DNA of 64,000 bases, taken from Gammaproteobacteria bacterium (GTDB lineage Bacteria > Pseudomonadota > Gammaproteobacteria > Steroidobacterales > Rariloculaceae). The position numbers and the translations under genes are program-made. This document shows, piece after piece, positions 10,959 to 61,744 of the stretch. The stretch's first letter is position 1; every line of letters begins with the position of its first letter. The stretch covers positions 33,061 to 97,060 of the forward strand of contig DASWKF010000094.1 of assembly GCA_036396795.1 (NCBI GenBank). The letters run 5' to 3'. The notes beneath the pieces are model-generated. The model made no database searches. It saw only the letters and a program-made list of their open reading frames with translations, and was not told the DNA's origin.

Positions 10959-11824
10959 GCGTCCTCGTCGATACAAGCTCCAAGGTCATCTGCCAGGGGA
11001 TCACCGGGCGCCAGGGCAGCTTCCATAGCGAGCAGTGCCTGGCCTACGGCACGCAGGTCGTCGCCGGGGTCACGCCCGGCCGCGGCGGCCAGCAGCATCT
11101 GGGGCTCGCGGTCTACGACACCGTGCGCGAAGCCGTCAAGGCGACGGGCGCCACTGTGAGCATGATCTATGTCCCAGCCCCCTACGCCGCCGACGCCGTG
11201 CTCGAGGCCGCCGACGCAGGGCTAGAGCTCATCGTCTGCATCACCGAAGGCGTGCCGGTGCTCGACATGGTGCGCGTCAAAGCGGCCCTCGCAGGGGCGC
11301 CCTGTCGCCTCATCGGGCCGAACTGCCCGGGGATCATCACGCCCGGCGGCGCGAAGATCGGTATCATGCCCGGGTTCATTCATTCGCCAGGCTCAGTCGG
11401 CATCATCTCGCGCTCAGGCACTTTGACCTACGAAGCCGTGTTGCAGACGACCACGCGCGGTCTGGGTCAAACCACCTGCATCGGCATCGGCGGCGACCCG
11501 GTGCGCGGCATGAACTTCATCGACTGCCTGGCGCTGTTCGAGGCCGATCCCGACACCCGCGGCATCATCATGGTCGGCGAGATCGGCGGCGCCGATGAGG
11601 AAGCCGCCGCGGAGTACATAGAAAGCCACGTCACCAAGCCCGTGGTCGCCTACATCGCCGGCGTGACCGCGCCGCCGGGCAAGCGCATGGGGCACGCCGG
11701 CGCGATCATCTCCGGCGGCAAGGGCACGGCGGAGGAGAAATACCGCGCCTTGGAAAAGGCCGGTGCCCGCACCGTGCGCTCTCCCGCCGATCTCGGAGTG
11801 GCGATGGCCGAGGCGCTGGAGTGA
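10955..11824 (+). CDS. sucD: Succinyl-CoA synthetase alpha subunit
   Basis: 289 aa. SRSGTLTYE and the phosphohistidine loop [14 protein letters not shown]. Start overlaps the sucC stop. Confidence 0.95.
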
Positions 11825-46675: not shown

Positions 46676-48121
46676 TCAGACCACGAGGCGTTGTCGTTGG
46701 CTTTGCGCGTGGTAGCCGCCCTTATAATGCACGAATCCCTCGGGCGCAAACCAGCGGTAGCGCGCGGCAAGCTCGGTCGTCGCACCGACGAGCAACAATG
46801 CCGGGCTCTCGACGTCGAGCTCGGCCGAGGCTTCCGCGAGATCGCCGAGCGCGCAAACGATGACGCGCTGCTCGAGCGTCGTGCCGCGCTCGACGATCGC
46901 GACGGGCAATGACGGCGAGTTGCCGGCCGCGATGAGCTCGGCGGCGATCGGCGTGTAACGCGAAACACCCATGTAGAGCGCCAGCGTCTGGCCCGGATCG
47001 AGCGTTCCTAAGCCCGGGGCGCCCTTGGCGTGGCCGTGACCGGTGGTCAACAGCAGCGTCGAGGCTGCGCCGCGCAAGGTCAGCGGGATCCCGGCATAGG
47101 CTGCGCAGCCGGTGACCGCCGAGACGCCCGGCACGACCTGGAAAGCCAGGCCGGCGCCGGCGAGCGCTTCGAGCTCCTCGCCGCCGCGGCCGAAAATCAT
47201 CGGGTCGCCGCCCTTGAGCCGGCAGACGCGCTTGCCGCTCTTGACGCGCTCGACCAGCAGCCGGTTGATCTGCTTTTGCGTGATCGAAGGCGTGCCTGCA
47301 CGCTTGCCGACGAAGATGAGCTCGGCGTCGCGGCGCGCGTAATCGAGCACCGCGGGCTCGACCAGCCGGTCGTAGAGCACGACCTCTGCCTGCGCGAGCA
47401 GTTGGCGGCCGCGCAAGGTGATGAGGTCGGGGCTGCCGGGGCCGGCGCCGACGAGATAGGCCTCGCCGGCTCGCCGGCCGCCGTTTGCCCGCCAAGCGGC
47501 GAGCGCCTCATCCAGCGCCGCCTCGGCGCCGGCCTCGTCGCCCGCGTAGCAGCGCTCAGGCACGCTGCTCTCGAGCAGCGTTTCCCAGAAGCGCCTGCGT
47601 AAGTCCATGTCGGGGATGGCGCTCTTGACGCGCTCACGCCAGCTTCCTGCGAGCCGCGCGAAGCGCCCGAGCTCGGCCGGCAGCACCGCTTCGATGAGGC
47701 CCTTGACCCAGCGGGCGATCACCGGCGAGCTGCCGCCGGTCGACACCGCGATCGTCACCGGGTCGCGGCGCAGCACCGCCGGCGAGATGAAGGAGCTTTG
47801 GCCTGCGTCGTCGACGACGTTGCAGAACCGCTGTTGTGCCTCGGCGGCCGCAAACACGCGCGCGTTCAACGCCCGATCGCTGGTCGCGGCGACGACCAGC
47901 CACTGGCCCTGAAGCCGGTCCTCGGCGAAGGGCTCGGCGATCCAGCGGATCTCGCCCGAGTCGGCCAGGCCCTCGAGCGAGCGCGTGAGGCTCGGGCTCA
48001 CGACGCTGACCTCGGCGCCGCAGGCCAGAAGCTCGCGCGCCTTGCGCTCGGCGACGCGGCCGCCGCCGATCACGATGCAGGGGCGGCCGTCGAGCCGGGT
48101 GAACAGGGGCAGGTATTCCAT
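46676..48121 (-). CDS. cysG: Siroheme synthase CysG (precorrin-2 dehydrogenase/ferrochelatase + SUMT)
   Basis: N-terminal Rossmann IVIGGGRVAERK, C-terminal methylase GAGPGSPDLITLRG...GGDPMIFGRGGEE. 481 aa. Confidence 0.92.
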   Translation of the reverse strand: MEYLPLFTRLDGRPCIVIGGGRVAERKARELLACGAEVSVVSPSLTRSLEGLADSGEIRWIAEPFAEDRLQGQWLVVAATSDRALNARVFAAAEAQQRFCNVVDDAGQSSFISPAVLRRDPVTIAVSTGGSSPVIARWVKGLIEAVLPAELGRFARLAGSWRERVKSAIPDMDLRRRFWETLLESSVPERCYAGDEAGAEAALDEALAAWRANGGRRAGEAYLVGAGPGSPDLITLRGRQLLAQAEVVLYDRLVEPAVLDYARRDAELIFVGKRAGTPSITQKQINRLLVERVKSGKRVCRLKGGDPMIFGRGGEELEALAGAGLAFQVVPGVSAVTGCAAYAGIPLTLRGAASTLLLTTGHGHAKGAPGLGTLDPGQTLALYMGVSRYTPIAAELIAAGNSPSLPVAIVERGTTLEQRVIVCALGDLAEASAELDVESPALLLVGATTELAARYRWFAPEGFVHYKGGYHAQSQRQRLVV

Positions 48122-48268: not shown

Positions 48269-49279
48269 ATGACGCTCAAGCAACTCAGATACCTGATCGC
48301 GATCGTCGATTGCGGTCTCAACATCACCTCCGCCGCGGAGCGGCTGTTCACCAGCCAGCCCGGCATCTCCAAGCAGCTCAAGCAGCTCGAGGCCGAGCTC
48401 GGGATGCAGCTCTTCACCCGCAAGGGCAAGAGTCTCGCGGCCGTGACCCCCGCCGGCACCGAGGTCCTCGAGCGCGCCCGCCGCGTGCTGCGCGAGGTCG
48501 AGAACATCACCAACCTGTCGCGCGAGCTCACCGGCGAGCAGGCCGGAACGCTGTCGATCGCGACCACGCACACCCAGGCACGCTACGTGCTGCCCGACGT
48601 CATTGCCGCCTTCACCGAGCGTTATCCCAAGGTCGATTTGGAGCTGCATCAAGGCACCTCGGAGCAGATCGCCGAGCTGGTCGCGGCGCATCGCGTCGAT
48701 TTCGCGATCGCCAGCGGCTCGCTGAAGCTCTTCTCCAACCTGACGGTGCTGCCGATCTACCACTGGCACCGCATCGCGCTGGTGCCGAAGAACCATCCGC
48801 TCGCGACCGACAACAGCCCGCTGACGCTGAAGACGCTGGCGGCCTATCCGCTGGTCACCTACGTCTTCAGCCTGACCGGCGAGTCGTCGTTCAAGCAGGC
48901 TTTCCAGGCGCAGGGCCTGGATCCGCGCGTGGCGTTCACGGCGCGCGACGCCGACATCATCAAGACCTATGTGCGCATGGGCATGGGCGTCGGCATCATC
49001 GCCTCGATGGCCTACGAGTGCCCGGATCAAAAGGACCTCACGGCCATCGACGCCAAAGGCCTGTTCCCGCAGATCACGACCTGGCTCGGGTTTCCCAAGG
49101 ACATGGTGCTGCGCAGCTACATGGTGGATTTCATCAATCTGCTCGCGCCGCATCTGCCGGTGCGCTGGATCCGCGACGTCGCCGGCGCCGAGACCCCGGA
49201 GGCAGTGGCCGAGCTGCTCGAGGGCATCGAGCTGCCGGTGCGCGGCGGCTGCGAGGAAGACGCCGCGGCCGCGGCCTAA
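48269..49279 (+). CDS. cysB: LysR-family transcriptional regulator CysB
   Basis: MTLKQLRYLIAIVDCGLNITSAAERLFTSQPGISKQLKQLE closely follows the CysB/Cbl N-terminus. 336 aa, divergent from cysG-cysK. Confidence 0.9.
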   Translation: MTLKQLRYLIAIVDCGLNITSAAERLFTSQPGISKQLKQLEAELGMQLFTRKGKSLAAVTPAGTEVLERARRVLREVENITNLSRELTGEQAGTLSIATTHTQARYVLPDVIAAFTERYPKVDLELHQGTSEQIAELVAAHRVDFAIASGSLKLFSNLTVLPIYHWHRIALVPKNHPLATDNSPLTLKTLAAYPLVTYVFSLTGESSFKQAFQAQGLDPRVAFTARDADIIKTYVRMGMGVGIIASMAYECPDQKDLTAIDAKGLFPQITTWLGFPKDMVLRSYMVDFINLLAPHLPVRWIRDVAGAETPEAVAELLEGIELPVRGGCEEDAAAAA

Positions 49280-50640
49280 GCGCTCGAGATCTCCGCGGCG
49301 GCGCGCTCGCCCGATTCCATCGCGGCTTCCATGCCGCGCGCCGCCTCGCTCAGGTGCTCGCCGCAGAAATGCAGGCGGCCGTGCGCGCGGCCCATCTCGG
49401 CGGCGAGCTCGGTGACCTGCCCGGGGCGAAAATACGCCCAGCCGCCGAGCGCGAACGGGTCGCTGCCCCAGGACTTTATTCCTGCGAGCTCGAGCCGGCC
49501 GCGCGCCGCCGGCCGGATCGCTTCGATCGCCTCGATCACCAGGCGCCCGGCGTCTTTCTCGGGCAGCACGTCGAGCCGGCGGGCGTTGGGCCCCATCGTC
49601 CAGGCAGTGAAGCTCGTGACCTCGTCGGGATCCTCGCCGTTGCGCGCCGCCGCGAGCATGCCGGCGACGCCGTCGGTGTAGAGGCTCGGCGCGTAGCCGT
49701 CGTCGTTCCAGAACTCAGCCGTGTGCGTGAGGTAGACCTGCGTCATCGCCTGATAGGGCAGCGTCTGCACGGCGCGCGCTTGCGCACCGCTAAGCGGCGG
49801 ATCGATGGCGATGTTTCCGAGCACCGGGAACGGCAGCGCGCAGACGACCGCGCGGGCGGCGTAGCGGCTGCCGTCGGCGCAGCGAACCAGCGCTGCATCG
49901 TCGCCGCTTTCGATCGCGACGACTACTTTGTCGAGCAGCACGCCGGGCGCAAGCGCCTCGGCCATCGCCTCGGGGATGCGCTGCACGCCGTCGCGGGCGG
50001 TGTAGCCGATCACATCGCCGGCAGCCTCGGCTCGCTGTGCGGTCGAGAACGCCGCGCGAAACAGCATCAACAGCGCCGAGACGTCGGCGGCGTTCTCGCC
50101 GTAGCCCACGTTGATGCCATAGCTCATATCGATGAGCTCGTCCGCGCATCCTAAGCCGCGCATCCAGTCGCGCAGCGAGATGTCGTGAATCGCCTGCTTG
50201 GGATCCAGCCAGTCGGCCGGTTTTGCGAGCGGGTTCTCGCGGGCCGTGAGCACGCGGTGATGCATCCACGGCATCAGCGCGCGGTCCGGCTCGGGAAACG
50301 GATTGGCCGGATGCGACGGCCACTCGGACTGGCGAATGATCTGTCGGCCCAGCACCAGCTCCTGCTCGCGAAAAAACTTGCAGATCGGCGTGACGTCGAT
50401 GAGCTCGACGCCGTGGCGCTCGGCGGCGGCGATGAGGCGCGTGTAACCGGCGCCGATGTAGGTGCCGCCGGCCTCGGCGGTGCTTGCGAGCTGGCGCATC
50501 GAGTGCACCCGGCCGCCGACGCGCGCTTGCGCTTCGAGCACGCGGGCATCCAGCCCGGCGCGCTTGAGCGCGAGCGCGGCCGAGAGCCCGGCGAGCCCCG
50601 CGCCGACGACGACGACCTCGTGCCGCTCCGCCCGGCTCAC
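49276..50640 (-). CDS. FAD-dependent amine-oxidase-fold flavoprotein; by context a candidate copro/protoporphyrinogen oxidase (HemY/CgoX role)
   Basis: GxGxxG VVVVGAGLAGLSAALAL...VLEAQARVGGRV and C-terminal LHFCGEH...GMEAAMESGERAA (flavin amine oxidase-like). GTG start overlaps the hemH stop (GTGA). Last gene of the heme operon. Confidence 0.6.
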   Translation of the reverse strand: MSRAERHEVVVVGAGLAGLSAALALKRAGLDARVLEAQARVGGRVHSMRQLASTAEAGGTYIGAGYTRLIAAAERHGVELIDVTPICKFFREQELVLGRQIIRQSEWPSHPANPFPEPDRALMPWMHHRVLTARENPLAKPADWLDPKQAIHDISLRDWMRGLGCADELIDMSYGINVGYGENAADVSALLMLFRAAFSTAQRAEAAGDVIGYTARDGVQRIPEAMAEALAPGVLLDKVVVAIESGDDAALVRCADGSRYAARAVVCALPFPVLGNIAIDPPLSGAQARAVQTLPYQAMTQVYLTHTAEFWNDDGYAPSLYTDGVAGMLAAARNGEDPDEVTSFTAWTMGPNARRLDVLPEKDAGRLVIEAIEAIRPAARGRLELAGIKSWGSDPFALGGWAYFRPGQVTELAAEMGRAHGRLHFCGEHLSEAARGMEAAMESGERAAAEISSA

Positions 50641-51746
50641 GGCGTCGAGACACCGTCGGCGACGCCGGCGAGCGACGGCCTCGGCGCCCCGGGCCGCCCC
50701 GACAGGCAGCAGTTGACCGGGCAGAAATCGTGGCTCGCGCCGAAATCGCCGAGCGCGCGGCGCTCGGGATCCTCGGTCATGCGCTCATCGATGAGCTCGC
50801 GCACCATCGCGACGTAGCTCGGGTGGCTGCCGACGGTCGCGGCGCGAAGCATGTTCAAGCCGAGCTCGCTCGCGCGCTTTTTCGCGTCGACGTCGAGATC
50901 GAGCACGACTTCCATGTGATCGCAGACGAAGCCGATGGGGGCGACCACGACGTCACGCGCACTGCGCGCGGCGAGCTTCTCGAGCACGGCGTCGATCGAC
51001 GGCGACAGCCAGGCATCGCCGTAAGCGGTGTTGTGGCTCTGGTAGGCGAGCTCCCAAGGCGGCGCGGCGATGCTTGCGGCGACGAGCCGGCAGGCTTCGT
51101 GCAGCTGGCTCTGATACGGCGCGTGGCGCGCCATCGACTCGGGCAGGCTGTGCGCGGTGAACACCAGCGGCGCGGCGGCGCGCGCGTGCTCCGGCAGCTC
51201 GGCGTAGGCCTCGCGCACGCGCGAGCTTACGGCTTCGATGAAGCCCGGATGGTTGTAGCCGTGGCGCAGCTTGTCGATGACGGGTGCCGCGTCGAGACCC
51301 GCGACCGCCGCGTAGAGATCCTCGCGGTAACGGCGGCAGCCGCTGTAGGAGCCGAAGGTGCTGGTGACGTAGGCGATCGCGCGGCGCACGCCGTCGTCGC
51401 GCATGCGCTTCACTGTGTCGGGCAAGAGCGGATGCCAATTGCGATTGCCCCAGTAGACCGGAAGATCGAGCCCCGACGTCTCGAGCTCGCGCTCGAGCGC
51501 GCCGATGAAGGCGCGCGTGTGCGCGTTGATCGGGCTGACGCCGCCGAAAGCCGCGTAGCGCTCGGCGATCTTGGCTTTGGCTTGCGGCGGCAGCTTCAAG
51601 CCCTCGAGCACCTTGTCGAGGAAGGGCATGACGTCGCCGGGTCCCTCGGGACCGCCGAAAGACACCACCAGCACGGCGTCGTAGGCGTGCGCCGCGGTGT
51701 CGATGAGCCCCAGGGGCGGGGCCGCCGGACGCGGGCCCTCAGGCAT
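50637..51746 (-). CDS. hemH: Ferrochelatase (actinobacterial/CpfC-like, Cys-rich C-terminus)
   Basis: DAVLVVSFGGPEGPGDVMPFL, YWGNRNWHPLL, HSLP motifs. Internal SGCRRY and C-terminal FCPVNCC cysteines. ATG 51746 (alternative GTG 51755) overlaps the upstream gene. Confidence 0.9.
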   Translation of the reverse strand: MPEGPRPAAPPLGLIDTAAHAYDAVLVVSFGGPEGPGDVMPFLDKVLEGLKLPPQAKAKIAERYAAFGGVSPINAHTRAFIGALERELETSGLDLPVYWGNRNWHPLLPDTVKRMRDDGVRRAIAYVTSTFGSYSGCRRYREDLYAAVAGLDAAPVIDKLRHGYNHPGFIEAVSSRVREAYAELPEHARAAAPLVFTAHSLPESMARHAPYQSQLHEACRLVAASIAAPPWELAYQSHNTAYGDAWLSPSIDAVLEKLAARSARDVVVAPIGFVCDHMEVVLDLDVDAKKRASELGLNMLRAATVGSHPSYVAMVRELIDERMTEDPERRALGDFGASHDFCPVNCCLSGRPGAPRPSLAGVADGVSTP

Positions 51747-52491
51747 CCGCGCCACCGGCCGGGCTCGCGCTCTGCCAGGCGACCTTGCCGACGAAGAACG
51801 GCCCGAGGCTCGTCAGGTATTGCGAGGTCTGCTCGGTCTTGCGCATTTCCTGCACCACCGCCGACAGCGGATAGAGCTGCGGGCCCAAAAGCCCGATGAT
51901 GAAATCGTTGTCGTGCTTGTCGAGACCGTGGCAGGCGAGGCGGATGTCCGCCGCGAGCCCGGCGAAGCCGAAGCGCTTGGCGAGGCTGCCGTGCTCGCCG
52001 AGGATCTGGCGCTGCTTGGCCGCGGGCAGGGTTTGGAACGACTTGGCGCGCTGCAAGGGATACCAGACGGCCCAGGGGAATTTGGCGTTGGTGACTTTGG
52101 CGCGGGGCTTGGCGAACAGCGCGTCCTCGAGATCGGGCTCATAGCCGAGCGTATAGGTGCGCCCGAGCATGTCGAAGTCGGGCTTGCGCGTCATCGAGAC
52201 GAACGGCGGCGCGTTCAACAGTGCGCGCAGCGGGCCTACGAAGTAATCGGGATCCTCGCTCATGACGACGAGCCCGATGCCCACTGGATCGTTGACGTCG
52301 AGATACAACGCGCCGTCGACACCGGCGTGCTCGAGCGCTTTCACCGCGGGCGCGGGATGCTGGCATCCGCCGTAGGCCATGAACTGCATGAACAGGCGCC
52401 GATCGAGCGCGATCGGCTTGCCGTCCTTGAGGCCCTTCTCGCTCAGATCCAGGCTCGACTCCTGCCCGGTTTCGTGCTCCGTTGCGCTCAT
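51739..52491 (-). CDS. Chlorite dismutase-family protein, HemQ/ChdC (coproheme decarboxylase) candidate
   Basis: 250 aa. Cld-family pattern WAVWYPLQR...QRQILGEHG (proximal His region) ...GLDKHDNDFIIGL. Sits between hemE and hemH. Confidence 0.7.
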   Translation of the reverse strand: MSATEHETGQESSLDLSEKGLKDGKPIALDRRLFMQFMAYGGCQHPAPAVKALEHAGVDGALYLDVNDPVGIGLVVMSEDPDYFVGPLRALLNAPPFVSMTRKPDFDMLGRTYTLGYEPDLEDALFAKPRAKVTNAKFPWAVWYPLQRAKSFQTLPAAKQRQILGEHGSLAKRFGFAGLAADIRLACHGLDKHDNDFIIGLLGPQLYPLSAVVQEMRKTEQTSQYLTSLGPFFVGKVAWQSASPAGGADA

Positions 52492-52501
52492 CGTTTGACC
52501 C

Positions 52502-53524
52502 TCATAGCTTCTCTTCGTGCACGGCCTCGACCAGCGCCGCGACGCTTGCGAGCGGCGTGCCGGGCAGGATGCCGTGCCCCAGGTTGACGATATGCCCGCG
52601 CGCGGCGACGCGCTCGAGCAGCTCGCGCGCCGCGGCGCGCGTGACCTCGGCGCCGCCGAGCAGCAGCGCCGGATCGAGGTTGCCCTGCAGCGCGCGGCTG
52701 CCGTCGAGACGCTGTTGCAGCGCCGCGAGGTCGACGCGCCAGTCGCAGGCGAGCACCTCGGCCGGAAGCTGTGCGTAGGCGTCGGTCAGATGCGGCGCGT
52801 TTTGCAGGAACAGGATACGCGGCAGGCCCGCCTCGCCCACCTTGCTCAGCAGGCGCAGCAGGTGCGGGCGGATCTGCCGCTGCCACTGCGCCAGCGACAG
52901 CACCCCGGCCCAGGAATCGAAAATCTGCACGGCATCGGCGCCGGCTTCGCCCTGGCGGATCAGATACGCCGCCAGCAGATCGGTGAGCCTCGCCAACAGC
53001 GCGTCGAGCGCCTCGGGCTGGGCCGCAGCGAAGGCGCGCAGCGTCGGGAAATCCTTGACCCCGCGGCCTTCGACGAGGTAAGCCGCGAGCGTCCAGGGCG
53101 CGCCGCAAAAGCCGAGCAAGGCGACCTCGGCGGGCAACGCACGGCGCGCGCTTGCAAGCGCCCCCATGACCTCGGGCGCGACCGCCTCGTCATCGGGCTC
53201 GAGCAGAGCCTCGACGTCGGCCTTGCTGCGGATCGGGTTTGCGACCACCGGCCCCGGAGCGAAATCGAACTCGATGCCGAGCGCCGGTATCGGGCTCATG
53301 ATGTCGGCAAACACAATGGCGGCATCGAGCGCAAAGCGCTTGAACGGCAGCAGCGTCACCTCGGTCGCGAGCTCGGGAGTAGAGGCGAGCGCCTTGAAGC
53401 TGTGGCGCGCGCGCAGCTCGCGGTACTCCGGCAAGTAACGGCCGGCCTGGCGCATGATCCACAGCGGCCGGCGCGGAAGCTCCGCTAGCTCGATCGCGTC
53501 GAGTAGCAGCGGGCGCATGCTCAC
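52502..53524 (-). CDS. hemE: Uroporphyrinogen decarboxylase
   Basis: PLWIMRQAGRYLPEYRE signature, 340 aa. GTG 53524 (alternative ATG 53518) lies 1 nt after the response-regulator stop. Confidence 0.95.
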   Translation of the reverse strand: MSMRPLLLDAIELAELPRRPLWIMRQAGRYLPEYRELRARHSFKALASTPELATEVTLLPFKRFALDAAIVFADIMSPIPALGIEFDFAPGPVVANPIRSKADVEALLEPDDEAVAPEVMGALASARRALPAEVALLGFCGAPWTLAAYLVEGRGVKDFPTLRAFAAAQPEALDALLARLTDLLAAYLIRQGEAGADAVQIFDSWAGVLSLAQWQRQIRPHLLRLLSKVGEAGLPRILFLQNAPHLTDAYAQLPAEVLACDWRVDLAALQQRLDGSRALQGNLDPALLLGGAEVTRAAARELLERVAARGHIVNLGHGILPGTPLASVAALVEAVHEEKL

Positions 53525-53525
53525 C

Positions 53526-54254
53526 TCAACCGGCCTCGGCGTCGCCGCTGCTGACCTCGGGCGCCGGCGTGAAGCGGTAACCGACGCCGCGCACGGTGTG
53601 GAAGTGCGAAGGAATCTCCGGGTTGCGCTCGAAGCGCTTGCGCAGCCGCACGATGAAGTTGTCGATGGTGCGCGTCGACGGGAACACCTCGTAGCCCCAG
53701 ACCCGGTCGAGTATGTCCTCGCGCGGTACGATGCTGCCGGCGCGCTCCGACAGAACTTTGAGGATCATGGCCTCCTTGTGCGTCAACGCGTGCTCGCTGC
53801 CGTCCCAGGCGCGGGCTTGATAGGTCTTGAAATCGACCTCGTTGCCGCTGAAGCTCAAAGCCGCGCGGCTGGCGTGGTACCAGTCGCTGCGCCTCAAGAT
53901 GGCGGCGACGCGCAACAGCAGCTCCTTCAAGTGGAACGGCTTGGCGAGATAGTCGTCGCCGCCGGCTTCGAGCCCGCGGATCCGGTCGGCGGGCTCGCCT
54001 TTGACCGTAAGGAACAACACCGGCGTCTGTAAGCCTTCGCGCCTGAGCTCCTCGCAGACCCGAAGGCCGTCGAGCTTGGGCATCATGACGTCGAGCACGA
54101 CGAGGTCGAAGTGCGTGGCGCGCAGCTTCTCGAGCCCCTCGGCGCCGTCGTGCGCGACCTCGGCGGCGTAGCCCTCGGCCGCGAGGTTCTCGCTGATGCC
54201 GGCGGCGAGATGCGCCTCGTCGTCGACGACCAGGATATGCGCTTGTGCGCTCAT
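53526..54254 (-). CDS. OmpR-family response regulator
   Basis: Receiver ILVVDDE...LVVLDVMMPKLDG...KPF plus winged-helix output (TRTIDNFIVRLRKRFE...HTVRGVGYRF). Its ATG overlaps the kinase stop (ATGA). Confidence 0.9.
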   Translation of the reverse strand: MSAQAHILVVDDEAHLAAGISENLAAEGYAAEVAHDGAEGLEKLRATHFDLVVLDVMMPKLDGLRVCEELRREGLQTPVLFLTVKGEPADRIRGLEAGGDDYLAKPFHLKELLLRVAAILRRSDWYHASRAALSFSGNEVDFKTYQARAWDGSEHALTHKEAMILKVLSERAGSIVPREDILDRVWGYEVFPSTRTIDNFIVRLRKRFERNPEIPSHFHTVRGVGYRFTPAPEVSSGDAEAG

Positions 54255-55330
54255 GCCTTGCCTGCCAGCGGCCAATCGAGCGTAATCGTCGCGCCGCGAT
54301 TGGGGCCATCGCTGTGCGCGGTGATGCTGCCGCCGGAGAGCTCCACCAGGCGCTTGACGATGTAGAGCCCGAGCCCGGTGCCCGGCGTCGAGCGGCGCAG
54401 CTCATCGCCCAAGCGAAAGAATTTCTCGAAGATCAGGCCGCCGTCCTCGGGCGGAAAGCCGAGGCCGTCGTCGCCAACGACGATCGTCGCATGCTCGCCG
54501 CTGCGCGCCGCCTGAAGCACGATCTTCGAGCCCGCGCCCGCGATGCAGGCCTTGAGCGCGTTGTCGAGCACGTTGCGCAGCACCGATTCCAGGCTCGTAT
54601 GGTCGGCGTGCAAGGTCAGGTCGGCGGGCACCTGGGCCTCGATCGCGATGCCGTTCGCCTTGGCGCGCTCGGCGATCTCGTCGATGCACGCCTGCGCGAC
54701 GCTGGCGAGCGCGACCGGCTCGCTGACGATGGTGTGGCGGCCTTCCTCGAGCCGCGCGGTGTCGAGCAGATTGTCGACCATGCGCAACAGCCGCTCGCCG
54801 TCGTCGAGGATGCGCCGGCCGAGGCGCTGGGTATCGGCATCGCTGACCCGCATCAGCAAGGTCTCGGCCGACAGCCGCATGCTCGCGAGCGGGCTCTTGA
54901 ACTCATGCGACACCGCGGCGAGGAAATTCTGCTGGCGCTTTCTGAGCTCGGCGTCGTGACGGATGGTGCGCGTCAGCACCGCCATGCCGCCGATCAGCAC
55001 CAGCAGAAAAAACCCGCCCTCCCAGGTGAAGCGGTTGATGCGCGATTCGGCCTCCTCCTCGAGCGCGTCGATCGCCTCGACGCGGACCGTCGCAAGCCCT
55101 GTGCCGACGTTCAGATGCGGCAGGAGCTCCTCGAAGCGATCCGTGCGCCCGGCATTGACCGCGGTCACGACCTGGGCGTCGGCGTCGTAGAGCCGCGCGA
55201 TGCGGTCGCGCACGTCGCGCGCGTAGCTGACGTGATCGGCCATCCACCAGGCGACCGTCGCCGCCGACAGCACCAGCAGCGCGAGGAAGCCGATCTGCAA
55301 CGCCTTGACGGGCTCACGTCTGAGAGCCAT
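54251..55330 (-). CDS. Sensor histidine kinase (two TM, ~75-aa outside loop, no HAMP recognised)
   Basis: TM1 residues ~10-30, TM2 GGFFLLVLIGGMAVL, H-box AAVSHEFKSPL, N box LDNALK, G boxes DDGLGF and GTGLGL. Start overlaps the hemL end by 17 nt. Confidence 0.88.
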   Translation of the reverse strand: MALRREPVKALQIGFLALLVLSAATVAWWMADHVSYARDVRDRIARLYDADAQVVTAVNAGRTDRFEELLPHLNVGTGLATVRVEAIDALEEEAESRINRFTWEGGFFLLVLIGGMAVLTRTIRHDAELRKRQQNFLAAVSHEFKSPLASMRLSAETLLMRVSDADTQRLGRRILDDGERLLRMVDNLLDTARLEEGRHTIVSEPVALASVAQACIDEIAERAKANGIAIEAQVPADLTLHADHTSLESVLRNVLDNALKACIAGAGSKIVLQAARSGEHATIVVGDDGLGFPPEDGGLIFEKFFRLGDELRRSTPGTGLGLYIVKRLVELSGGSITAHSDGPNRGATITLDWPLAGKA

Positions 55331-56651
55331 GGGTACCTCCCGAAGCGGTATGCGGAACGAGGTTGGCGAGCACCTGGCTCAAGGTCGCGCAGAGCTGCTC
55401 GATGTCCTCGCGCTGATGCGCGAGCGAGACGAAGCCGATCTCGTACGCCGACGGCGGGAGCGCCACCCCGCGCGCGAGCAGGCCGTGGAAGATCTCGGCG
55501 TAGAGCGCCCCGGCGTCCGCCGGAAGCGCCTCGGCGGAGCGCGGCGGCGTGTCGCTGAGCCAGGCGATCCAGAACATCGAGCCGAGCCGCACGAGGCTGG
55601 CGCTGACGCCGCTTTGACGCAAGCATTCGGTGAGAAGCTGCTCGAGATATTGGCCGCGCGCCTCCAACTGCTTCCAGCCGTCCTGCGCCGCCAGCAGCCT
55701 CAAGGTCGAAAGCCCCGCGGCCATCGCCACCGGATTGCCGGACAGCGTGCCGGCCTGATAGACGGATCCCAGCGGCGCAAGCTCGGCCATCAGCGCCTTG
55801 CAGCCGCCGAAGGCGCCGACCGGCATGCCGCCACCGATGACCTTACCGAAGGTGGCGAGATCCGGCGTGATGCCGTAGTGCGCCGCCGCGCCGCCCGGGC
55901 CGAGACGAAAGCCCGAGATAACCTCGTCGAAGATCAGCAAGCTCCCGTGCGCTTGCGTGAGCGCGCGGAGCTTGGCGAGGAACTCCGGCCGTTGCAGCAA
56001 CAGCCCGTTGTTCGCCGGCACCGGCTCGATGATGAGCGCGGCGATGCGCGCGCCTTCCTCGGCGAACAGCCGCTCGAGCTCGAGCGTGTCGTCGAGCCGC
56101 AGCACCCGTGTCAGCGCGGTGAAGTCTTGCGGCACGCCGGCCGACGACGGCTTGCCGAAAGTCGCAAGCCCCGAGCCCGCGGCGACCAGCAGCGAATCCA
56201 CGTGGCCGTGATAGCAGCCGGAGAACTTGACGATCAGGTCGCGGCCGGTCGCGCCGCGCGCCAGCCGGATCGCGCTCATGACGGCCTCGGTGCCCGAAGA
56301 CACGAAGCGCAGCTGCTCGAGCCCCGGATAGCTCGCGACCACGGTTTCGGCGAGCTCGATCTCCCCCGGGCAGGGTGCGCCGTAGGACGTGCCGCGGCGC
56401 GCCGCCCGCTCGATCGCCTCGACCACCGACGGGTGCGCGTGGCCGAGGATCAACGGCCCCCAGGAGCCGACGAAATCGAGGTAGCTTCTGCCGTCGACGT
56501 CGGTCATGTAGGCGCCCTTGGCGGACTCGATCACCAATGGCGTGCCGCCGACGGCACCGTATGCGCGCACCGGCGAGCTCACGCCGCCGGGCAGGCGCGC
56601 GCGCGCCCGGTCGAACCACTGTGCCGAGCTCGGTCCGGCGGAGTTGCTCAC
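55314..56651 (-). CDS. hemL: Glutamate-1-semialdehyde 2,1-aminomutase
   Basis: LPGGVSSPVRAY, GSWGPLILGH, PLP lysine in TFGKVIGGG. GTG 56651 overlaps the hemB stop (GTGA). The ORF-track 650-aa extension was trimmed. Confidence 0.93.
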   Translation of the reverse strand: MSNSAGPSSAQWFDRARARLPGGVSSPVRAYGAVGGTPLVIESAKGAYMTDVDGRSYLDFVGSWGPLILGHAHPSVVEAIERAARRGTSYGAPCPGEIELAETVVASYPGLEQLRFVSSGTEAVMSAIRLARGATGRDLIVKFSGCYHGHVDSLLVAAGSGLATFGKPSSAGVPQDFTALTRVLRLDDTLELERLFAEEGARIAALIIEPVPANNGLLLQRPEFLAKLRALTQAHGSLLIFDEVISGFRLGPGGAAAHYGITPDLATFGKVIGGGMPVGAFGGCKALMAELAPLGSVYQAGTLSGNPVAMAAGLSTLRLLAAQDGWKQLEARGQYLEQLLTECLRQSGVSASLVRLGSMFWIAWLSDTPPRSAEALPADAGALYAEIFHGLLARGVALPPSAYEIGFVSLAHQREDIEQLCATLSQVLANLVPHTASGGTHGSQT

Positions 56652-57652
56652 AGCCAGCGTCCCCGGATCGCATCGGCGGCGTGATAAGTGATGATCTGGT
56701 CGGCGCCGGCGCGGCGGATCGCGAGCAGGTTCTCGCGCACCACCTGCGCCTCGTCGATCCAGCCCTGCGCGGCCGCGGCCTTGACCATCGCGTATTCGCC
56801 GGAGACGTTGTAGGCGGCGAGCGGCAGGCCGGTCGATTCGCGCACGCGCGCGATCACGTCGAGATAGGCGAGCGCCGGCTTGACCATCAGAATGTCCGCG
56901 CCTTCGGCCGCATCCAGCGCGGTCTCGCGCAGCGCCTCGCGGGCGTTGCGGCAGTCCATCTGATAGCTCTGGCGGTCGCCCTGCTGTGGCGCCGAGCCCG
57001 CCGCGTCGCGAAACGGCCCGTAGTAGCCGGAGGCGTATTTGACCGCGTAGGCCATCAGGATCACGTCGCTGAAGCCTTGAGCGTCCAAGGCGTCGCGAAT
57101 GGCGGCGATGCGCCCGTCCATCATGTCCGACGGCGCGATCACGTCGGCGCCGGCCTCGGCGTGGCTGAGCGCGGTCTTGACGATGGGCTCGAGCGAGACG
57201 TCGTTGGCGATGCGGCCCTGCTCGATGAGCCCGCAGTGGCCGTGATCGGTGTAGGCGCACAGGCACACGTCGGTCATGACGATGAGATCGTCGCCGAAAG
57301 CCCGTTTGAGCCGCATCGTTGCCTGCTGCACCGCGCCGTTGGGATCCCAGGCGAGGCGGCCGTCGGCGGTTTTCGCGGCGCCCGCCTCGGGGTGGCCGAA
57401 CAAGAGCGCTGCGCGGATGCCGAGCGAGAGCTCCGCCTCGACGGTCGCAAGCAGCGTCGTGAAGCCGAGCTGCTTAAGCCCCGGCAGCGACGCGAACGGC
57501 TCGACGGCATCGTCGGCGGGCAGCACGAAGCGCGGCACGATGAATTGCGACGGCGCGATGTGGGTCTCGGCGACGAGATTTCGCAGCGCCTTGCTGCGCC
57601 GCAGCCGCCGCGGCCGCACGCGGCCCGGTGTCGTCACGTTGAGCTTGCGCAT
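56648..57652 (-). CDS. hemB: Porphobilinogen synthase (Zn-type)
   Basis: RPRRLR, Cys-rich metal site DVCLCAYTDHGHCG, Schiff-base lysines (MVKPA, YAVKYAS). 334 aa from ATG 57652, overlapping the hemD stop. Confidence 0.95.
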   Translation of the reverse strand: MRKLNVTTPGRVRPRRLRRSKALRNLVAETHIAPSQFIVPRFVLPADDAVEPFASLPGLKQLGFTTLLATVEAELSLGIRAALLFGHPEAGAAKTADGRLAWDPNGAVQQATMRLKRAFGDDLIVMTDVCLCAYTDHGHCGLIEQGRIANDVSLEPIVKTALSHAEAGADVIAPSDMMDGRIAAIRDALDAQGFSDVILMAYAVKYASGYYGPFRDAAGSAPQQGDRQSYQMDCRNAREALRETALDAAEGADILMVKPALAYLDVIARVRESTGLPLAAYNVSGEYAMVKAAAAQGWIDEAQVVRENLLAIRRAGADQIITYHAADAIRGRWL

Positions 57653-58374
57653 CACATCGCCTCCATGAGCCCTTCCAGGCTCGGGCTTTCCGCCTGCGCC
57701 TTGACCTCGAGATCCGCGGCGTGGGCGGCGGCGGTCGTCGACGGCCCGATCGTGAAAATATCCGCGTCGGCGTCGAGCTCGACCTGATTGACGAAGCCGG
57801 TCACCGCGCTCGGGCTCGCGAGCAGCACCGCGTCGACGCCGAGCGTCGAGAGCTTGGTCTTGCGGTCCGAGGGCTCGGCCGGCACGGTATGGTAGACGTC
57901 GAGGCGCACGCAGCGCACGCCCGCGTGCCCGAGCCGGTCCTCGATCGTCGCCGGCGCGTTCTCGGCCAGCACCAGGATCACGCTGCGCCCGGCGACGTCG
58001 GCGCGCATCGCCAGCGCCTCGGCCAAGGAGGCCGCCGTGCCCGCCTCGCTGACGAGATCGACGCGCCCCAGCAGCGCCCTGGCCGCGGCGGCGGTCGCGG
58101 GCCCGACGGCGGCGACCTTGACGCGCGCGGGCAGGAGCTGCGGGTGCAGCCGCGTGAACGACTCGATGCCGCGGCGCGAGGTGAACACCAGCCAGTCGGC
58201 GCGCGGCAGCTCGACGACGATGCGGCCGGTGAGCGCGGCGCTGCGGCGGTCCTCGACGCGCAGGCAGGGCAGGATCACCGGGATCGCGCCGGCATCGCGC
58301 AGGATCGCGGCCCAGGTCTCGCTGTCCTCGAGGTTGCGCGTGACCAGCACGCGTCTGCCTTTGACCTTGCTCAT
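57652..58374 (-). CDS. hemD: Uroporphyrinogen-III synthase
   Basis: 240 aa, VLVTR...W..FTS..G two-lobed HEM4 pattern. Positioned between hemC and hemB with ATGA overlap to hemC. Confidence 0.82.
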   Translation of the reverse strand: MSKVKGRRVLVTRNLEDSETWAAILRDAGAIPVILPCLRVEDRRSAALTGRIVVELPRADWLVFTSRRGIESFTRLHPQLLPARVKVAAVGPATAAAARALLGRVDLVSEAGTAASLAEALAMRADVAGRSVILVLAENAPATIEDRLGHAGVRCVRLDVYHTVPAEPSDRKTKLSTLGVDAVLLASPSAVTGFVNQVELDADADIFTIGPSTTAAAHAADLEVKAQAESPSLEGLMEAM

Positions 58375-59276
58375 GGCTCGAGCTCCTTCCAGACGCGCTC
58401 GGCGAGCGCCTGCGCATCGGGCCCGTCGGCGCTGGCGCGCTCGAGCTTGCCTTGACGCTCGAGCATTGCGACGAATTCGAAGCCGCCGTTCGAAGCTAGG
58501 CAATACGCGCCGAGCGCGAGCTCGCAGCCGCCTTCGACGCGCGCGAGCAAGGCCCGCTCGGCATCGACGCAGGCGCGGCTCGCCGCATCGTCGAGCGGGG
58601 CGAGCGCCTCGCGTATCGCGGCATCTTGGGTCCGGCATTGCACCGCGAGCGCGCCTTGCGCCGGTGCCGGCGGAAAGTCGCGGATTGCGAGCGCCGCGAC
58701 GACGCGATCGCCCAGCGCGATCGCGGGCTGCCCGAGCGTCGCCGCTTGCAGGCGCTCGATGCCCGCGGCGGCGAGCACCACGGCATCGACGCGCTCGCCG
58801 ACCCGCTGGATGCGCGTCGGCACGTTGCCGCGCAGCGGCTGGACCTTGAGATCCGGGCGCAGATGCCTGATCCACGCCTGACGCCGCGCCGATGCCGTGC
58901 CGACCGTGACCCCCTGGCGCAGCGGCAGCACCGCGGCGCTCGCATCCGCCGCGGCTCTGGTGGCGACGACGACGTCGGCGGCGGCGTGACGCCGCGGCAC
59001 TGCGGCGACGACGAGCCCGCGCGGCGAGCTCGTCGGCAGGTCCTTGTACGAATGCACCGCGACATCGACGGCGCCCGCGATGAGCGCCTGCTCGATCTCG
59101 CGGACGAACACGCCCTGCGGACCGATGCTGCCGAAAAACGGCGCGTCGGAGCGATCGCCTGCGGTGCGGATGATCACCAGCTCGGTGCCGATGCCCTGTG
59201 CGGCAAGCGCGGCGGCGATGCCGGCGGCCTGGGTGCGCGCGAGCTGCGAGCCGCGCGTGCCGATCTTGAGCATCAT
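58371..59276 (-). CDS. hemC: Hydroxymethylbilane synthase (porphobilinogen deaminase)
   Basis: LKIGTRGSQLARTQ, HSYKDLP, cofactor-Cys region EGGCELALGAY. 301 aa. Its ATG overlaps the hemA stop (ATGA). Confidence 0.93.
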   Translation of the reverse strand: MMLKIGTRGSQLARTQAAGIAAALAAQGIGTELVIIRTAGDRSDAPFFGSIGPQGVFVREIEQALIAGAVDVAVHSYKDLPTSSPRGLVVAAVPRRHAAADVVVATRAAADASAAVLPLRQGVTVGTASARRQAWIRHLRPDLKVQPLRGNVPTRIQRVGERVDAVVLAAAGIERLQAATLGQPAIALGDRVVAALAIRDFPPAPAQGALAVQCRTQDAAIREALAPLDDAASRACVDAERALLARVEGGCELALGAYCLASNGGFEFVAMLERQGKLERASADGPDAQALAERVWKELEP

Positions 59277-60604
59277 GCCTTGGCTCCGCCGTCGCCCGCG
59301 GCGCGCTGCTTCAGGGCGGCGCGCAGCTCGTCGGCGAACTCGGGCTCGAGGCCCGCGAGAAACGCGTCGATCGAGCCGGCCGGGCCCTGCTTGAGCAGGC
59401 CGCGCAGGCCGGCGCAGGGGATGTGCGCGAAACGCCGCGCGAGCACCTCGGCCCAGGTCGAGATCGCCTCGCGCTCGGCGGAGCCTAAGCCCTTGAGCTC
59501 CTTGCCGAGCAGCCGCTCGACGCCTTGGCGCGCGGTGTGCCGGTAGCGGTTCTGCAGCGTGCCGAACAACGGTCCGAAGATGCGCTCGGCGAAACGCTCG
59601 TAGAGCCGCTCGAGCGCGGCATCGACGAGCTCGCGCGCCTGGGCCGCCTCGACCAGCCGCGCGGCGCGGTTCTCCTCGGTGGCGGCGACGATCTCGTCCA
59701 TGCCGATGCGCTCGAGCCCGAGCCTTTTCGCTGCGGCCGCGTCGATGTCGGGCGGCACCGCCATGTCGATCAAAAGCGGCGCCTCGCCCGAGGGCGTGCG
59801 CGCCGCGAGCCGCTCGAGCACCGAGGCATCCAGCAGCGCGCTGCCCGCGCCGGTTGCCGTCAGCACGCCCTCGACGGCGGGCGGCTCGGCGTGGAACTCG
59901 GCGAGCGAGCAATGCGCGGCGCCGTGCTCGCGTGCAAGCATGGCGGCCTTGTCGGCGGAGCGGTTGACGACGATGAGCTCGATGCCGGATTTGGCGAGCG
60001 CCAGCGCCGCGCGCTCGGTCATCGCGCTGATGCCGATCAGCGCGACTGCGCCGCCGGTGCGCGCGATGCGCTCGCGCAGCTTATCGACGGCGATCTCGGC
60101 CAGCGACACGCGGCCGGCGCCGACGCGGGTCTCGCCGCGCACCTGTCTGGCGATCTTGAGCGCTTCCTCGAACAACAGCTCGAGCTTGGGGCCGATCGAG
60201 CCCGTCGCCTGCGCTTGTTCGCGGCAGTCGCGCACCTGGCCGGTGATCTCGACCTCGCCGACGGCCGCCGAGTCGAGCCCCGCGGCGACCAGAAACAGGT
60301 GCTCGCAGGCGCCTTCGCCCTGCCAGGCGCGCAAGCGGCGCTCGGCCTGGCCGGGGACGGGCGCATTCCCGGTCAGAAGCTCGAAGGCGGCGGCGCGGAT
60401 GTCGCGCGGCGTGGTCGCGCCGCGCGAGAAAATCAGCTCGACGCGGTTGCAGGTCGCCAGATACGCAAGCTCGGCCAAGCTGAGCCGCGCGGCGAAATCG
60501 CGCAGGCGCGCGGCCTGATCCTCCGCGGGCAACAGGAAGCCTTGCAGGCTTTCGCTGCCGTTCTGGCGCCAGGAAACGCCGACGATGCCGAGGTCTTCGA
60601 GCAC
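59273..60604 (-). CDS. hemA: Glutamyl-tRNA reductase
   Basis: Catalytic ATCNRVE motif, NADPH domain VALIGISAMTE, long C-terminal dimerisation helix. 443 aa, GTG start. Confidence 0.92.
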   Translation of the reverse strand: MLEDLGIVGVSWRQNGSESLQGFLLPAEDQAARLRDFAARLSLAELAYLATCNRVELIFSRGATTPRDIRAAAFELLTGNAPVPGQAERRLRAWQGEGACEHLFLVAAGLDSAAVGEVEITGQVRDCREQAQATGSIGPKLELLFEEALKIARQVRGETRVGAGRVSLAEIAVDKLRERIARTGGAVALIGISAMTERAALALAKSGIELIVVNRSADKAAMLAREHGAAHCSLAEFHAEPPAVEGVLTATGAGSALLDASVLERLAARTPSGEAPLLIDMAVPPDIDAAAAKRLGLERIGMDEIVAATEENRAARLVEAAQARELVDAALERLYERFAERIFGPLFGTLQNRYRHTARQGVERLLGKELKGLGSAEREAISTWAEVLARRFAHIPCAGLRGLLKQGPAGSIDAFLAGLEPEFADELRAALKQRAAGDGGAKA

Positions 60605-60635
60605 GCCGACTAGCCTAGGCTCCGCCCGTCCCGGT

Positions 60636-60653
60636 GTGTCACACGAGTGTCAC
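60636..60653 (-). promoter_or_regulatory. Tandem direct repeat GTGACAC-N4-GTGACAC upstream of hemA (candidate regulator site)
   Basis: Plus strand has GTGTCAC at 60636-60642 and 60647-60653, with 11-bp periodicity, 32-49 nt upstream of the hemA GTG. Confidence 0.3.
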
Positions 60654-60664
60654 CGCGGGCCCGC

Positions 60665-61744
60665 TCAGCGCGAAAACGCGACCTCGGTCGCAGCCAGGAT
60701 CGCGGTCCACTGCTCGCGGATGCTCGAGGACAGCGCCAGCTGCGCGGCGGCGCGCGCGAGGTTGTGCTCGCTCGCCGAGCCGTAGCGCGCCTCGTTCCAG
60801 GCGAAGTAGCGCTCGTTGAGCGCATCGGCGCAGAAGCGCGCCGCGAGCTCGACCGCGATCGTGAGCAGGCCCGCCGGGATCGCGCGCCATTCGGGCTCGG
60901 CGATGAACGCGCGCGCGGGCGCGGCATAGCCTGCGAGCGCGGCGCGATAGACGTCGAGGTCCAGGCGCGCCTGCGGCGCATCCTCGCCCTCGAGGTTGCA
61001 CCAGGAGCGCAGCGCATCGCCGAGCTCGAGCTGAACCGGCATACGCGCGAGCGTGTCGAGATCGACCAGGCACACGGCCTTGCCGCTTTGCGCATCGAAA
61101 ATCACGTTGGAGATCTTCGGATCGCCGTGGACGATGCGGTCTTTGGTCTGCGGCAGCGCCGGCACGGCCGCCGCGAGCTTCAGTATCTCGCCGGCGACGG
61201 CGCGCACGGCCTCGTAGTCGGCGTGCGCCTCATGCTCGACGAGCGTCCGCTCGAGATACTCAAGATGCTTGGCCGTGTCGTGCACGCCGAGGCGCGCGTT
61301 GGCGAAGGCGTGCTCGAGATCGGCGAGCGCGGCGTGGAAGCGGCCGAGCAGCCTGCCGGCCTCGCGCGCCTGCGCGGCGCCTTGCAGCCGCTCGTAGGTC
61401 ACGCCCGGGACATAGCTCAAGGTCCGCCAGACGGCGCCTTCGATCCGCTGCCAGCGCTCGCCTTGCGGCAGCGGCAGCAGCCGCGGCGTTACGAGCCCCT
61501 TGGCCTCGAGATGCCGGGTGACCACGTCGATGTCGTCGTTGATGCCGGGCGGGAAGATCGCGTTCACGCGCTGCAGCACGCGCCGCTCGCCGCCCGGCAA
61601 AGTCGCGAGCCAGCTCGAGTTGATCCAACCGGAGTCGAAGCGCTCGAGCGTCGCCCCGGCTAGGCCCAAGGCGGCGAGGGTGGCCGGCGGCGGCGGAGAT
61701 CGATCGCCCATGGGGTCGGCATCATACCTTCCCCGCGAGCTCAA
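60665..61744 (-). CDS. Phosphotransferase enzyme family protein (APH/homoserine-kinase-II-like kinase fold)
   Basis: Catalytic loop IVHGDPKISNVIFD and downstream LVDLDT (DxD). ~350 aa. Start is TTG 61744 or ATG 61711. Confidence 0.72.
   Translation of the reverse strand: MSSRGRYDADPMGDRSPPPPATLAALGLAGATLERFDSGWINSSWLATLPGGERRVLQRVNAIFPPGINDDIDVVTRHLEAKGLVTPRLLPLPQGERWQRIEGAVWRTLSYVPGVTYERLQGAAQAREAGRLLGRFHAALADLEHAFANARLGVHDTAKHLEYLERTLVEHEAHADYEAVRAVAGEILKLAAAVPALPQTKDRIVHGDPKISNVIFDAQSGKAVCLVDLDTLARMPVQLELGDALRSWCNLEGEDAPQARLDLDVYRAALAGYAAPARAFIAEPEWRAIPAGLLTIAVELAARFCADALNERYFAWNEARYGSASEHNLARAAAQLALSSSIREQWTAILAATEVAFSR

Follow-up and report, generated by a model that had tools for sequence, protein, structure and literature searches.

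We analysed a 64,000-nt stretch of DNA (hereafter the window) from an uncultured gammaproteobacterium of the Rariloculaceae (contig DASWKF010000094.1, positions 33,061 to 97,060), in which a sensor histidine kinase (HK) and a response regulator (RR) are encoded in the middle of a heme biosynthesis operon, and compared this pair with HemKR, the two-component system of heme metabolism in Leptospira. Searches with Pfam and NCBIfam delineated an operon of 11 genes on the minus strand, with the order hemA-C-D-B-L-HK-RR-hemE-chdC-like-hemH-amine oxidase, that extends from position 49276 to position 60604 (Table 1). Sequence and Pfam matches place kinase and regulator between hemL and hemE. The TGA codon of hemL (55316-55314) lies inside the kinase gene, whose ATG starts at 55330, generating an overlap of 17 nt, and a GGAGG sequence is found 6 nt upstream of this ATG. 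Kinase and regulator genes are joined by an ATGA sequence (54254-54251), and a single nucleotide separates the TGA of the regulator gene (53528-53526) from the GTG of hemE (53524), for which an ATG at 53518 is a possible second start. These three junctions had been described in an earlier note on this DNA and were confirmed by reading the sequence. The note had also claimed that the pair is co-translated with the biosynthetic enzymes rather than sitting beside them. The tight coupling of the pair to the enzyme genes holds, but it is not peculiar to the pair: eight of the ten junctions of the operon are overlaps between start and stop codons (ATGA three times, GTGA twice, TGATG once, and overlaps of 14 and 17 nt) leaving two junctions with gaps, one of 1 nt and one of 10 nt. 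Because all ten are equally tight, the coupling of kinase and regulator is a property of the whole operon, which is very compact and translationally coupled. Scans with a generic sigma-70 model and for terminators revealed no meaningful promoter or terminator inside the operon, and no Rfam riboswitch or leader was found in it or near it, the sole Rfam match in the window being a tRNA-Ser.

Table 1. Genes of the heme operon and putative control elements upstream of hemA (positions in the window).
Feature	Positions	Strand	Evidence and junctions
hem-box TGACACTCGTGTGACA (TGACA-N6-TGACA), predicted binding site of the phosphorylated regulator	60637..60652	(-)	motif match and conservation
putative -10-like hexamer TAGGCT	60612..60617	(-)	19 nt 3′ of the hem-box, 7 nt 5′ of the hemA GTG
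hemA, glutamyl-tRNA reductase, first gene of the operon	59273..60604	(-)	Pfam GlutR_N; NCBIfam TIGR01035, 196 bits, slightly below the cut-off of 209.55
hemC, porphobilinogen deaminase	58371..59276	(-)	Pfam Porphobil_deam, 212 bits; ATGA overlap with hemA
hemD, uroporphyrinogen-III synthase	57652..58374	(-)	Pfam HEM4, 151 bits; ATGA overlap with hemC
hemB, 5-aminolevulinic acid (ALA) dehydratase	56648..57652	(-)	Pfam ALAD, 452 bits; TGATG overlap with hemD
hemL, glutamate-1-semialdehyde aminomutase	55314..56651	(-)	Pfam Aminotran_3, 251 bits; GTGA overlap with hemB
HemK-like sensor histidine kinase, 359 amino acids	54251..55330	(-)	Pfam, hydropathy, family alignment
HemR-like OmpR/PhoB-type response regulator, 242 amino acids	53526..54254	(-)	Pfam
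hemE, uroporphyrinogen decarboxylase	52502..53524	(-)	Pfam URO-D, 360 bits; TIGR01464, 361 bits against a cut-off of 303
chlorite-dismutase-superfamily gene, divergent ChdC/HemQ-like	51739..52491	(-)	Pfam Chlor_dismutase, 46.6 bits
hemH, ferrochelatase	50637..51755	(-)	Pfam Ferrochelatase, 265 bits; start overlaps the stop of the chdC-like gene
flavin amine-oxidase family gene, last in the operon	49276..50640	(-)	Pfam Amino_oxidase, 197 bits

The kinase consists of a HisKA domain (residues 133-197) and a HATPase_c domain (residues 243-356), and a Pfam scan of the full protein gave no HAMP or PAS match. Hydropathy analysis located two transmembrane (TM) helices at residues ~10-31 (TM1) and ~102-123 (TM2), with an outside loop of ~70 residues between them. 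The predicted phospho-accepting histidine, H142, follows ~20 residues past TM2. This agrees with the earlier note, which had recognised two TM helices, neither HAMP nor PAS, and an H-box soon afterwards, and had estimated the loop at ~75 residues. In an AF2 model of the kinase (mean pLDDT 70), a single unbroken helix (residues 84-161) begins in the periplasm, crosses the membrane as TM2 and continues as the first helix of the DHp domain. The residue at position H+4 is S146, which a family alignment showed to be invariant in close homologues and replaced by Thr in locus L026. As for the regulator, it carries Response_reg and Trans_reg_C domains, its predicted phospho-acceptor is D55, and no NCBIfam equivalog matched it above its own cut-off.

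Synteny of the kinase-regulator pair

The earlier note had put forward a survey of gene neighbourhoods as a check on its proposal, and we found that linkage of the kinase to hem genes recurs widely, with the loci L019, L034 and L036 as exceptions. Full-length relatives of the kinase (357-367 amino acids, 57-84% identity) are many and nearly all metagenomic. Among contigs representing one genome per species, 28 loci contained kinase relatives at 43-78% identity, nearly all of them from uncultured Gammaproteobacteria such as Ca. Rariloculaceae and Ca. Azotimanducaceae. The arrangement hemL-HK-RR-hemE was present in about 23 gammaproteobacterial loci from metagenome-assembled genomes (kinase identity 43-78%), and the order hemA-C-D-B-L-HK-RR-hemE-chdC-hemH-oxidase was retained wherever the sequence was long enough, save in four variants. 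One of them, from Azotimanducaceae, reads hemA-HK-RR-hemE-chdC-hemH-oxidase (L018). Two others read hemA-HK-RR followed by unrelated genes (L024 and L027). In the fourth, on an Azotimanducaceae chromosome, a kinase homologue with 51% identity lies beside thyX, with neither a regulator gene nor hem genes adjacent to it (L019, positions 10001-11140). The same insertion point was found in more than 25 independent loci, a recurrence that puts the arrangement beyond chance. Complete chromosomes of metagenome-assembled genomes, for example OZ253541.1, OZ250159.1 and OY761822.1, are among the sequences with the system.

When 1.8 billion cluster representatives were searched exhaustively, about 80 further clusters, 35-54% identical, proved to share the full-length kinase architecture, and generic hybrid kinases prevailed among matches scoring under ~190 bits. 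One cluster of distant homologues, that of P0196, includes a member of 606 amino acids (P0275), about the length of kinase and regulator together (369 + 239), which might reflect a fusion of the two genes or an artefact caused by a frameshift. Gene contexts of the distant clusters were inspected for a sampled subset. One locus with a kinase of 37% identity and a GC content of 37% contains the same 11 genes as the operon in the window (L162), and others read hemA-hemC/D-hemB-hemL-HK-RR-hemE (L158, 42%), hemD-hemB-hemL-HK-RR-hemE (L159, 40%), hemA-hemL-HK-RR-hemC-hemE-hemF-UPF0093, the last being HemJ-like (L160, 39%), hemH-hemA-hemL-HK-RR-hemC-hemD-hemB-hemE-hemF (L161, 35%) and hemD-hemL-HK-RR (L064, 32%). 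In two loci the kinase is not linked to hem genes (L034, 35%, and L036, 38%). Whenever the pair is hem-linked, it directly follows the genes that form ALA, that is, hemL, or hemA in L018, L024 and L027.

These neighbourhoods bear on whether the pair might be a generic phosphate or envelope two-component system (PhoR/SenX3, CreC or PnpS-like) that travels in the operon as a passenger and governs an unrelated regulon. The names given by JGI to homologues include PhoR and SenX3, and the top NCBIfam matches of the kinase are PnpS, CreC and PhoR, those of the regulator being RpaB, MtrA and PhoB. However, the scores of the kinase fall far under the respective cut-offs (152 against 400 for PnpS, 135 against 356 for CreC and 132 against 334 for TIGR02966, phoR_proteo), and the matches span the DHp and CA core only (residues ~115-352 for PnpS and phoR_proteo). 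Moreover, the kinase remains linked to hemL or hemA across many lineages, down to 32-35% identity, and is accompanied by a conserved operator at hemA, described below. A passenger role is very improbable. Assignment of the kinase to the PhoR/SenX3 type was rejected on the basis of the scores below cut-off and the lack of a PAS domain.

The hem-box upstream of hemA

The binding site of HemR, named the hem-box, has been published as TGACA-N6-TGACA (PMC11426443). An identical motif is located in the window 33 nt upstream of the hemA GTG, within the 60-nt gap that separates hemA from a gene of the APH family. It is the sole perfect occurrence of this pattern in the 64 kb, for which shuffled sequences gave a chance expectation of 0.04, and no further hem-box with 0 or 1 mismatch was found in the window, including the region upstream of a TonB-dependent receptor gene (42788-45388).

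A hem-box was present in all 26 related loci that include the 5′ end of hemA, always on the coding strand and 31-71 nt upstream of hemA, with 23 perfect copies and 3 carrying one mismatch. In the first 22 of these loci the distance to hemA is 33-71 nt, 19 boxes are perfect, 3 have one mismatch, and no second perfect match occurs in the same locus (up to ~21 kb). The remaining four loci are more distant; each has a perfect box before hemA, and only one of them, L161, contains an additional perfect box, before hemH. The two boxes of L161 lie at 4132-4147 and 5274-5289, one before hemH and beside a divergent TonB-dependent receptor gene, and one before hemA. Judging from this locus, hemH, and perhaps uptake genes too, may belong to the regulon, as in Leptospira.

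When the upstream regions were aligned on the box, both pentamers were invariant while the N6 spacer and the flanks had diverged, which is the pattern of a protein-binding site. The loci that carry the box span kinases down to 35% identity to that of the window and GC contents from 37% to 72%. Together with the identity to the published site, this comparison of sequences provides strong evidence that the regulator would have the DNA specificity of HemR and act on the promoter of its own operon.

A putative -10-like hexamer follows the box (Table 1). It was not called by the generic sigma-70 scan, and nearly all loci have a TAnnnT hexamer 19-20 nt 3′ of the box. With this hexamer as -10 element, the box would be centred near -40 of the predicted hemA promoter, the position typical of class-II activators. 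In the window (60602-60652) and in nine related loci (L001, L002, L005, L007, L008, L010, L015, L017 and L018), exactly 7 nt separate the hexamer from the GTG or ATG of hemA, and no Shine-Dalgarno sequence is present. Loci with a longer spacing between hexamer and hemA have a GGAG- or AGG-type sequence before the start codon. This distribution suggests that the hemA mRNA is leaderless in this lineage, with transcription predicted to start at or close to the initiation codon.

Comparison with Leptospira HemKR and a model of control

The heme-metabolism two-component system of Leptospira, a Gram-negative bacterium, was described as Hklep/Rrlep by Louvel et al. in 2008 (PMC2266917) and later renamed HemKR (Morero 2014, as cited in PMC11426443). 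In L. interrogans the two genes, LB014/LB015, have hemL and hemE as neighbours in the cluster hemACDBL-[HK-RR]-ENYH and are co-transcribed with it (PMC2266917), so that the premise of the earlier note, according to which no heme-responsive two-component system was embedded in a biosynthesis operon, was wrong. In the Leptospira kinase, two TM helices enclose a periplasmic loop of 32 residues (31-62) and the phospho-accepting residue is H98; the regulator is of the OmpR type and is phosphorylated on D53. Mutants require hemin or ALA for growth, and in L. biflexa replacement of the loop left function intact and the cytoplasmic part of the kinase alone failed to complement (PMC2266917). According to a later article, the signal shown in Leptospira is ALA or a porphyrin metabolite derived from it, not heme or iron (Fe3+), and it drives HemK into a phosphatase mode that depends on T102; a hem-box is located upstream of hemA, which is activated, and of hmuO, which is repressed (PMC11426443).

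The pair in the window resembles HemKR in its position between hemL and hemE, which in L. interrogans is likewise part of a co-transcribed hem cluster, in the combination of a two-TM HisKA kinase devoid of HAMP and PAS with an OmpR/PhoB-type regulator whose phospho-acceptor lies near residue 53 (D55 here), and in the TGACA-N6-TGACA motif upstream of hemA. The hosts differ, since Leptospira HemKR (LB014/LB015, or LEPBIa1423/1422 in L. biflexa, GenBank EF577043) has its counterpart here in an uncultured GC-rich gammaproteobacterium. L. biflexa HemK was compared through short fragments translated from published primers. At the end of TM1, HemK reads VWWWILG (24-30, with WWW at 25-27) and the window kinase has WW at 28-29; at the start of TM2, HemK reads FFLSMLT (63-69, with FF at 63-64) and the window kinase has FF at 107-108. 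The distance from this FF to the phospho-accepting His is 35 residues in both proteins. Their H-boxes, HEMKTPIASL (98-107) in HemK and EFKSPLASM following H142 in the window, are identical at 6 of 10 positions and have Thr and Ser, respectively, at H+4. The ATGA junction between kinase and regulator genes is also common to L. biflexa and the window. These agreements fit orthology and are too short to prove it.

Searches aimed at Leptospira itself added little. PDB sequence searches with regulator and kinase returned no entry named HemR or HemK, homologue searches with the primer-derived HemK fragments, with and without X linkers, gave no candidates, and no metagenome contig matched a degenerate DNA pattern designed on the H-box of L. 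biflexa. A shorter H-box pattern retrieved 120 unrelated kinases, mostly from gut Firmicutes with NVSHEMKTPIAIIKNYA, one of the matches being the distant hem locus L064. There was no Leptospira among the matches listed for a tblastn search of HemE against PLSDB, and none recognisable among the best 150 kinase cluster representatives.

We propose, with a probability of about 0.75, that the pair is a HemKR-type two-component system controlling the heme operon that encodes it. In this uncultured gammaproteobacterium it would act as a HemKR-type homeostat of heme that regulates its own expression, and for which we infer both the signal and the sign of control. The kinase would autophosphorylate at H142 and transfer the phosphate to D55 of the regulator. 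The phosphorylated regulator would then bind the direct repeat as a head-to-tail dimer near -40 of the hemA promoter, and this binding would set the transcription of the whole 11-gene operon, to which belong hemA and hemL, which serve ALA synthesis, and the pair itself. By analogy with Leptospira HemKR, the phosphorylated regulator would most likely be an activator. Rising levels of ALA or of a downstream porphyrin intermediate would flip the kinase to a phosphatase, so that the regulator would be dephosphorylated and expression of the operon would decrease, a negative feedback on precursor supply.

The same wiring might operate with the opposite sign, with the regulator repressing the hemA promoter by blocking the -35 region and excess heme or porphyrin turning the kinase on. 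The proximal half-site, gTGACA, matches 5 of the 6 positions of the -35 consensus TTGACA and lies 19-20 nt upstream of the -10-like hexamer, making competition with sigma-70 possible. HemR represses hmuO through the same box, and under iron limitation the hem operon of L. biflexa is expressed ~8-fold above wild type in a hemKR deletion mutant (PMC11426443). In the same source, however, phosphorylated HemR activates hemA, and ALA shuts the system off and lowers hemA expression. Besides, a spacing of 19-20 nt between half-site and hexamer exceeds that of a good sigma-70 promoter and fits an activator-dependent one. Repression appears unlikely, and by analogy with Leptospira we favour activation with moderate confidence.

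Regarding the signal, the earlier note had proposed a dedicated feedback sensor of heme, porphyrin, iron or envelope state that controls its own operon. Control of its own operon gains support from the conserved OmpR-type direct-repeat operator at the hemA promoter of the same unit. The signal shown in Leptospira, ALA or a derived porphyrin metabolite, is neither heme nor iron. The loop, which the note had regarded as a candidate ligand site, is a doubtful place for sensing. Its centre varies in length among orthologues, with ~35-50 residues absent from the alignment in L016, L023 and L026 and ~20 extra residues in L018, and this variability, together with the replaceable loop of L. biflexa, argues against the loop centre as ligand site. 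The strongly conserved parts of the kinase family are TM1, the sequence SRINRYxWEGGFF before TM2, TM2 itself and the linker LTRTIRHDAxLRKRQQNFLAAVSHE. This conservation, read alongside the Leptospira results, points to sensing by membrane-proximal or transmembrane parts, or on the cytoplasmic side, and the signal is probably ALA or a porphyrin precursor.

Other bacteria tune heme homeostasis through two-component systems as well. HssRS (Staphylococcus and Bacillus) and ChrSA/HrrSA (Corynebacterium) belong to Gram-positive bacteria, and their signal is heme itself. A large extracellular domain together with a HAMP linker characterises HssS, whose regulon is hrtAB; ChrS and HrrS are multi-pass HisKA_3 kinases that work with NarL-type regulators. 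To our knowledge, these systems are neither embedded in hem operons nor dependent on a hem-box. In Bacillus subtilis, ResDE (resABCDE) comprises a kinase and an OmpR-type regulator that are co-transcribed with cytochrome c maturation genes and control heme-linked genes. The kinase, ResE, contains both HAMP and PAS and reacts to redox state or to limiting oxygen. Unlike the pair in the window, ResDE is encoded outside a tetrapyrrole synthesis operon and uses a different operator. Assignment of the kinase to the HssS, ChrS or ResE type was rejected because the domain architectures given by Pfam differ. At the level of target genes, HrrSA and ChrSA have been reported to repress hemA (PMC10991733).

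A sensor of heme or of heme toxicity of the HssRS or ChrSA/HrrSA type, encoded in the operon by happenstance and binding heme through its loop or membrane part, would account for the strong genetic linkage to heme synthesis, and the conserved parts of the kinase are indeed embedded in or close to the membrane, where heme partitions. Against this, the kinase lacks a HAMP domain and the large extracytoplasmic domain of HssS, the pair is of the HisKA and OmpR types rather than HisKA_3 and NarL, and no efflux genes of the hrtAB or another ABC type were found near it. The operator is identical to the hem-box of HemR, and the signal shown for Leptospira is ALA or a derived metabolite, not Fe3+ (PMC11426443). 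We consider direct sensing of heme improbable.

Several points weigh against a HemKR-type controller. Gene order, domain architecture and the conserved operator sequence are observations, whereas binding of the operator, the hemA promoter with its start site and control of hem expression in this organism are predictions from sequence. Orthology to Leptospira HemK and HemR is based on short fragments, synteny and the operator. Two of the kinase relatives (L034 and L036, 35-38% identity) lack both hem linkage and a box within 10 kb, as is also the case in L. biflexa itself. The likeness of gTGACA to a -35 hexamer means that part of its conservation could come from contact with sigma-70. The ~8-fold rise in the deletion mutant indicates that the sign of control at L. 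biflexa hemA is not simple. Finally, the outside loop comprises ~70 residues here against 32 in L. biflexa HemK, although orthologues with short loops exist in the window family, and the H+4 residue is Ser here against Thr in HemK.

Late operon genes, flanking genes and wider meaning

The late part of the operon, with a divergent ChdC/HemQ-like gene and an oxidase resembling monoamine oxidase (MAO), is atypical for Gammaproteobacteria. It comprises chdC-like, hemH and MAO-like oxidase genes, as opposed to hemN-hemY-hemH in Leptospira. The ChdC-like protein reached 31.6 bits against HemQ_actino, whose cut-off is 235, and its PDB matches were weak. The location of its gene between hemE and hemH suggests a coproporphyrin-type branch in a gammaproteobacterium. 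The nearest PDB relatives of the oxidase are MAO-B, L-amino-acid oxidase and putrescine oxidase (phmmer ~1e-28), which are closer to it than HemY or CgoX, and TIGR00562 (protoporphyrinogen oxidase) covers just residues 6-54. The oxidase gene is kept at the end of the operon in related loci and occupies the slot where HemY or CgoX would be expected, and its product may be a non-canonical copro- or protoporphyrinogen oxidase. The C-terminus of HemH (50637-50720, minus strand) forms a Cys-rich tail containing HDFCPVNCCLSGRPG, which we take to be reminiscent of the C-terminal [2Fe-2S] motifs of some ferrochelatases. Genes of the coproporphyrin pathway are reported to be rare in diderms (PMC10991733).

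On the upstream side, the APH-family phosphotransferase gene (60665-61744, minus strand) directly precedes the hem-box and hemA, and many related loci, among them the AT-rich L162, keep it in this position. The Rariloculaceae loci have an insertion of 2-3 kb between this gene and hemA. On the downstream side, a gene for a CysB/Cbl-like LysR regulator (48269-49279, plus strand) converges on the operon, its stop overlapping that of the oxidase gene, and is followed by cysG (siroheme synthase; 46676-48121, minus strand) and cysK (45710-46663, minus strand). This LysR-cys neighbourhood also occurs in L009, L023, L026 and L162.

The embedded arrangement of HemKR was already known from Leptospira; the novelty lies in the host range and in the conservation of the operator across lineages. 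In the literature searched, all papers naming HemKR or Hklep concern Leptospira, and beyond this genus we found only the remark, given as 'data not shown', that Bdellovibrio bacteriovorus has the same hem linkage (PMC2266917). In the loci examined here, HemKR-type pairs accompany both protoporphyrin-type late genes (HemF in L160 and L161, HemJ-like UPF0093 in L160) and coproporphyrin-type late genes. Tentatively, and at less than even odds, we suggest that HemKR with the hem-box might be an old and widespread heme operon controller, wired directly after hemA/hemL, rather than a speciality of Leptospira. In this gammaproteobacterial lineage it would govern a coproporphyrin-like branch with a divergent ChdC and, replacing CgoX/HemY, a MAO-like flavoprotein that might represent an unrecognised class of (copro)porphyrinogen oxidase.

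This breadth should be useful to specialists in heme regulation, even if it is not very surprising. The hem-box would serve as a reliable genomic marker of the HemR regulon, and the system becomes open to comparative study, in which natural variants in loop length may inform on the site of sensing. The analysis also flags a gammaproteobacterial heme operon that combines coproporphyrin-type late genes with a non-canonical oxidase. More generally, environmental bacteria may commonly control heme synthesis by two-component systems that mediate feedback from ALA and porphyrins.

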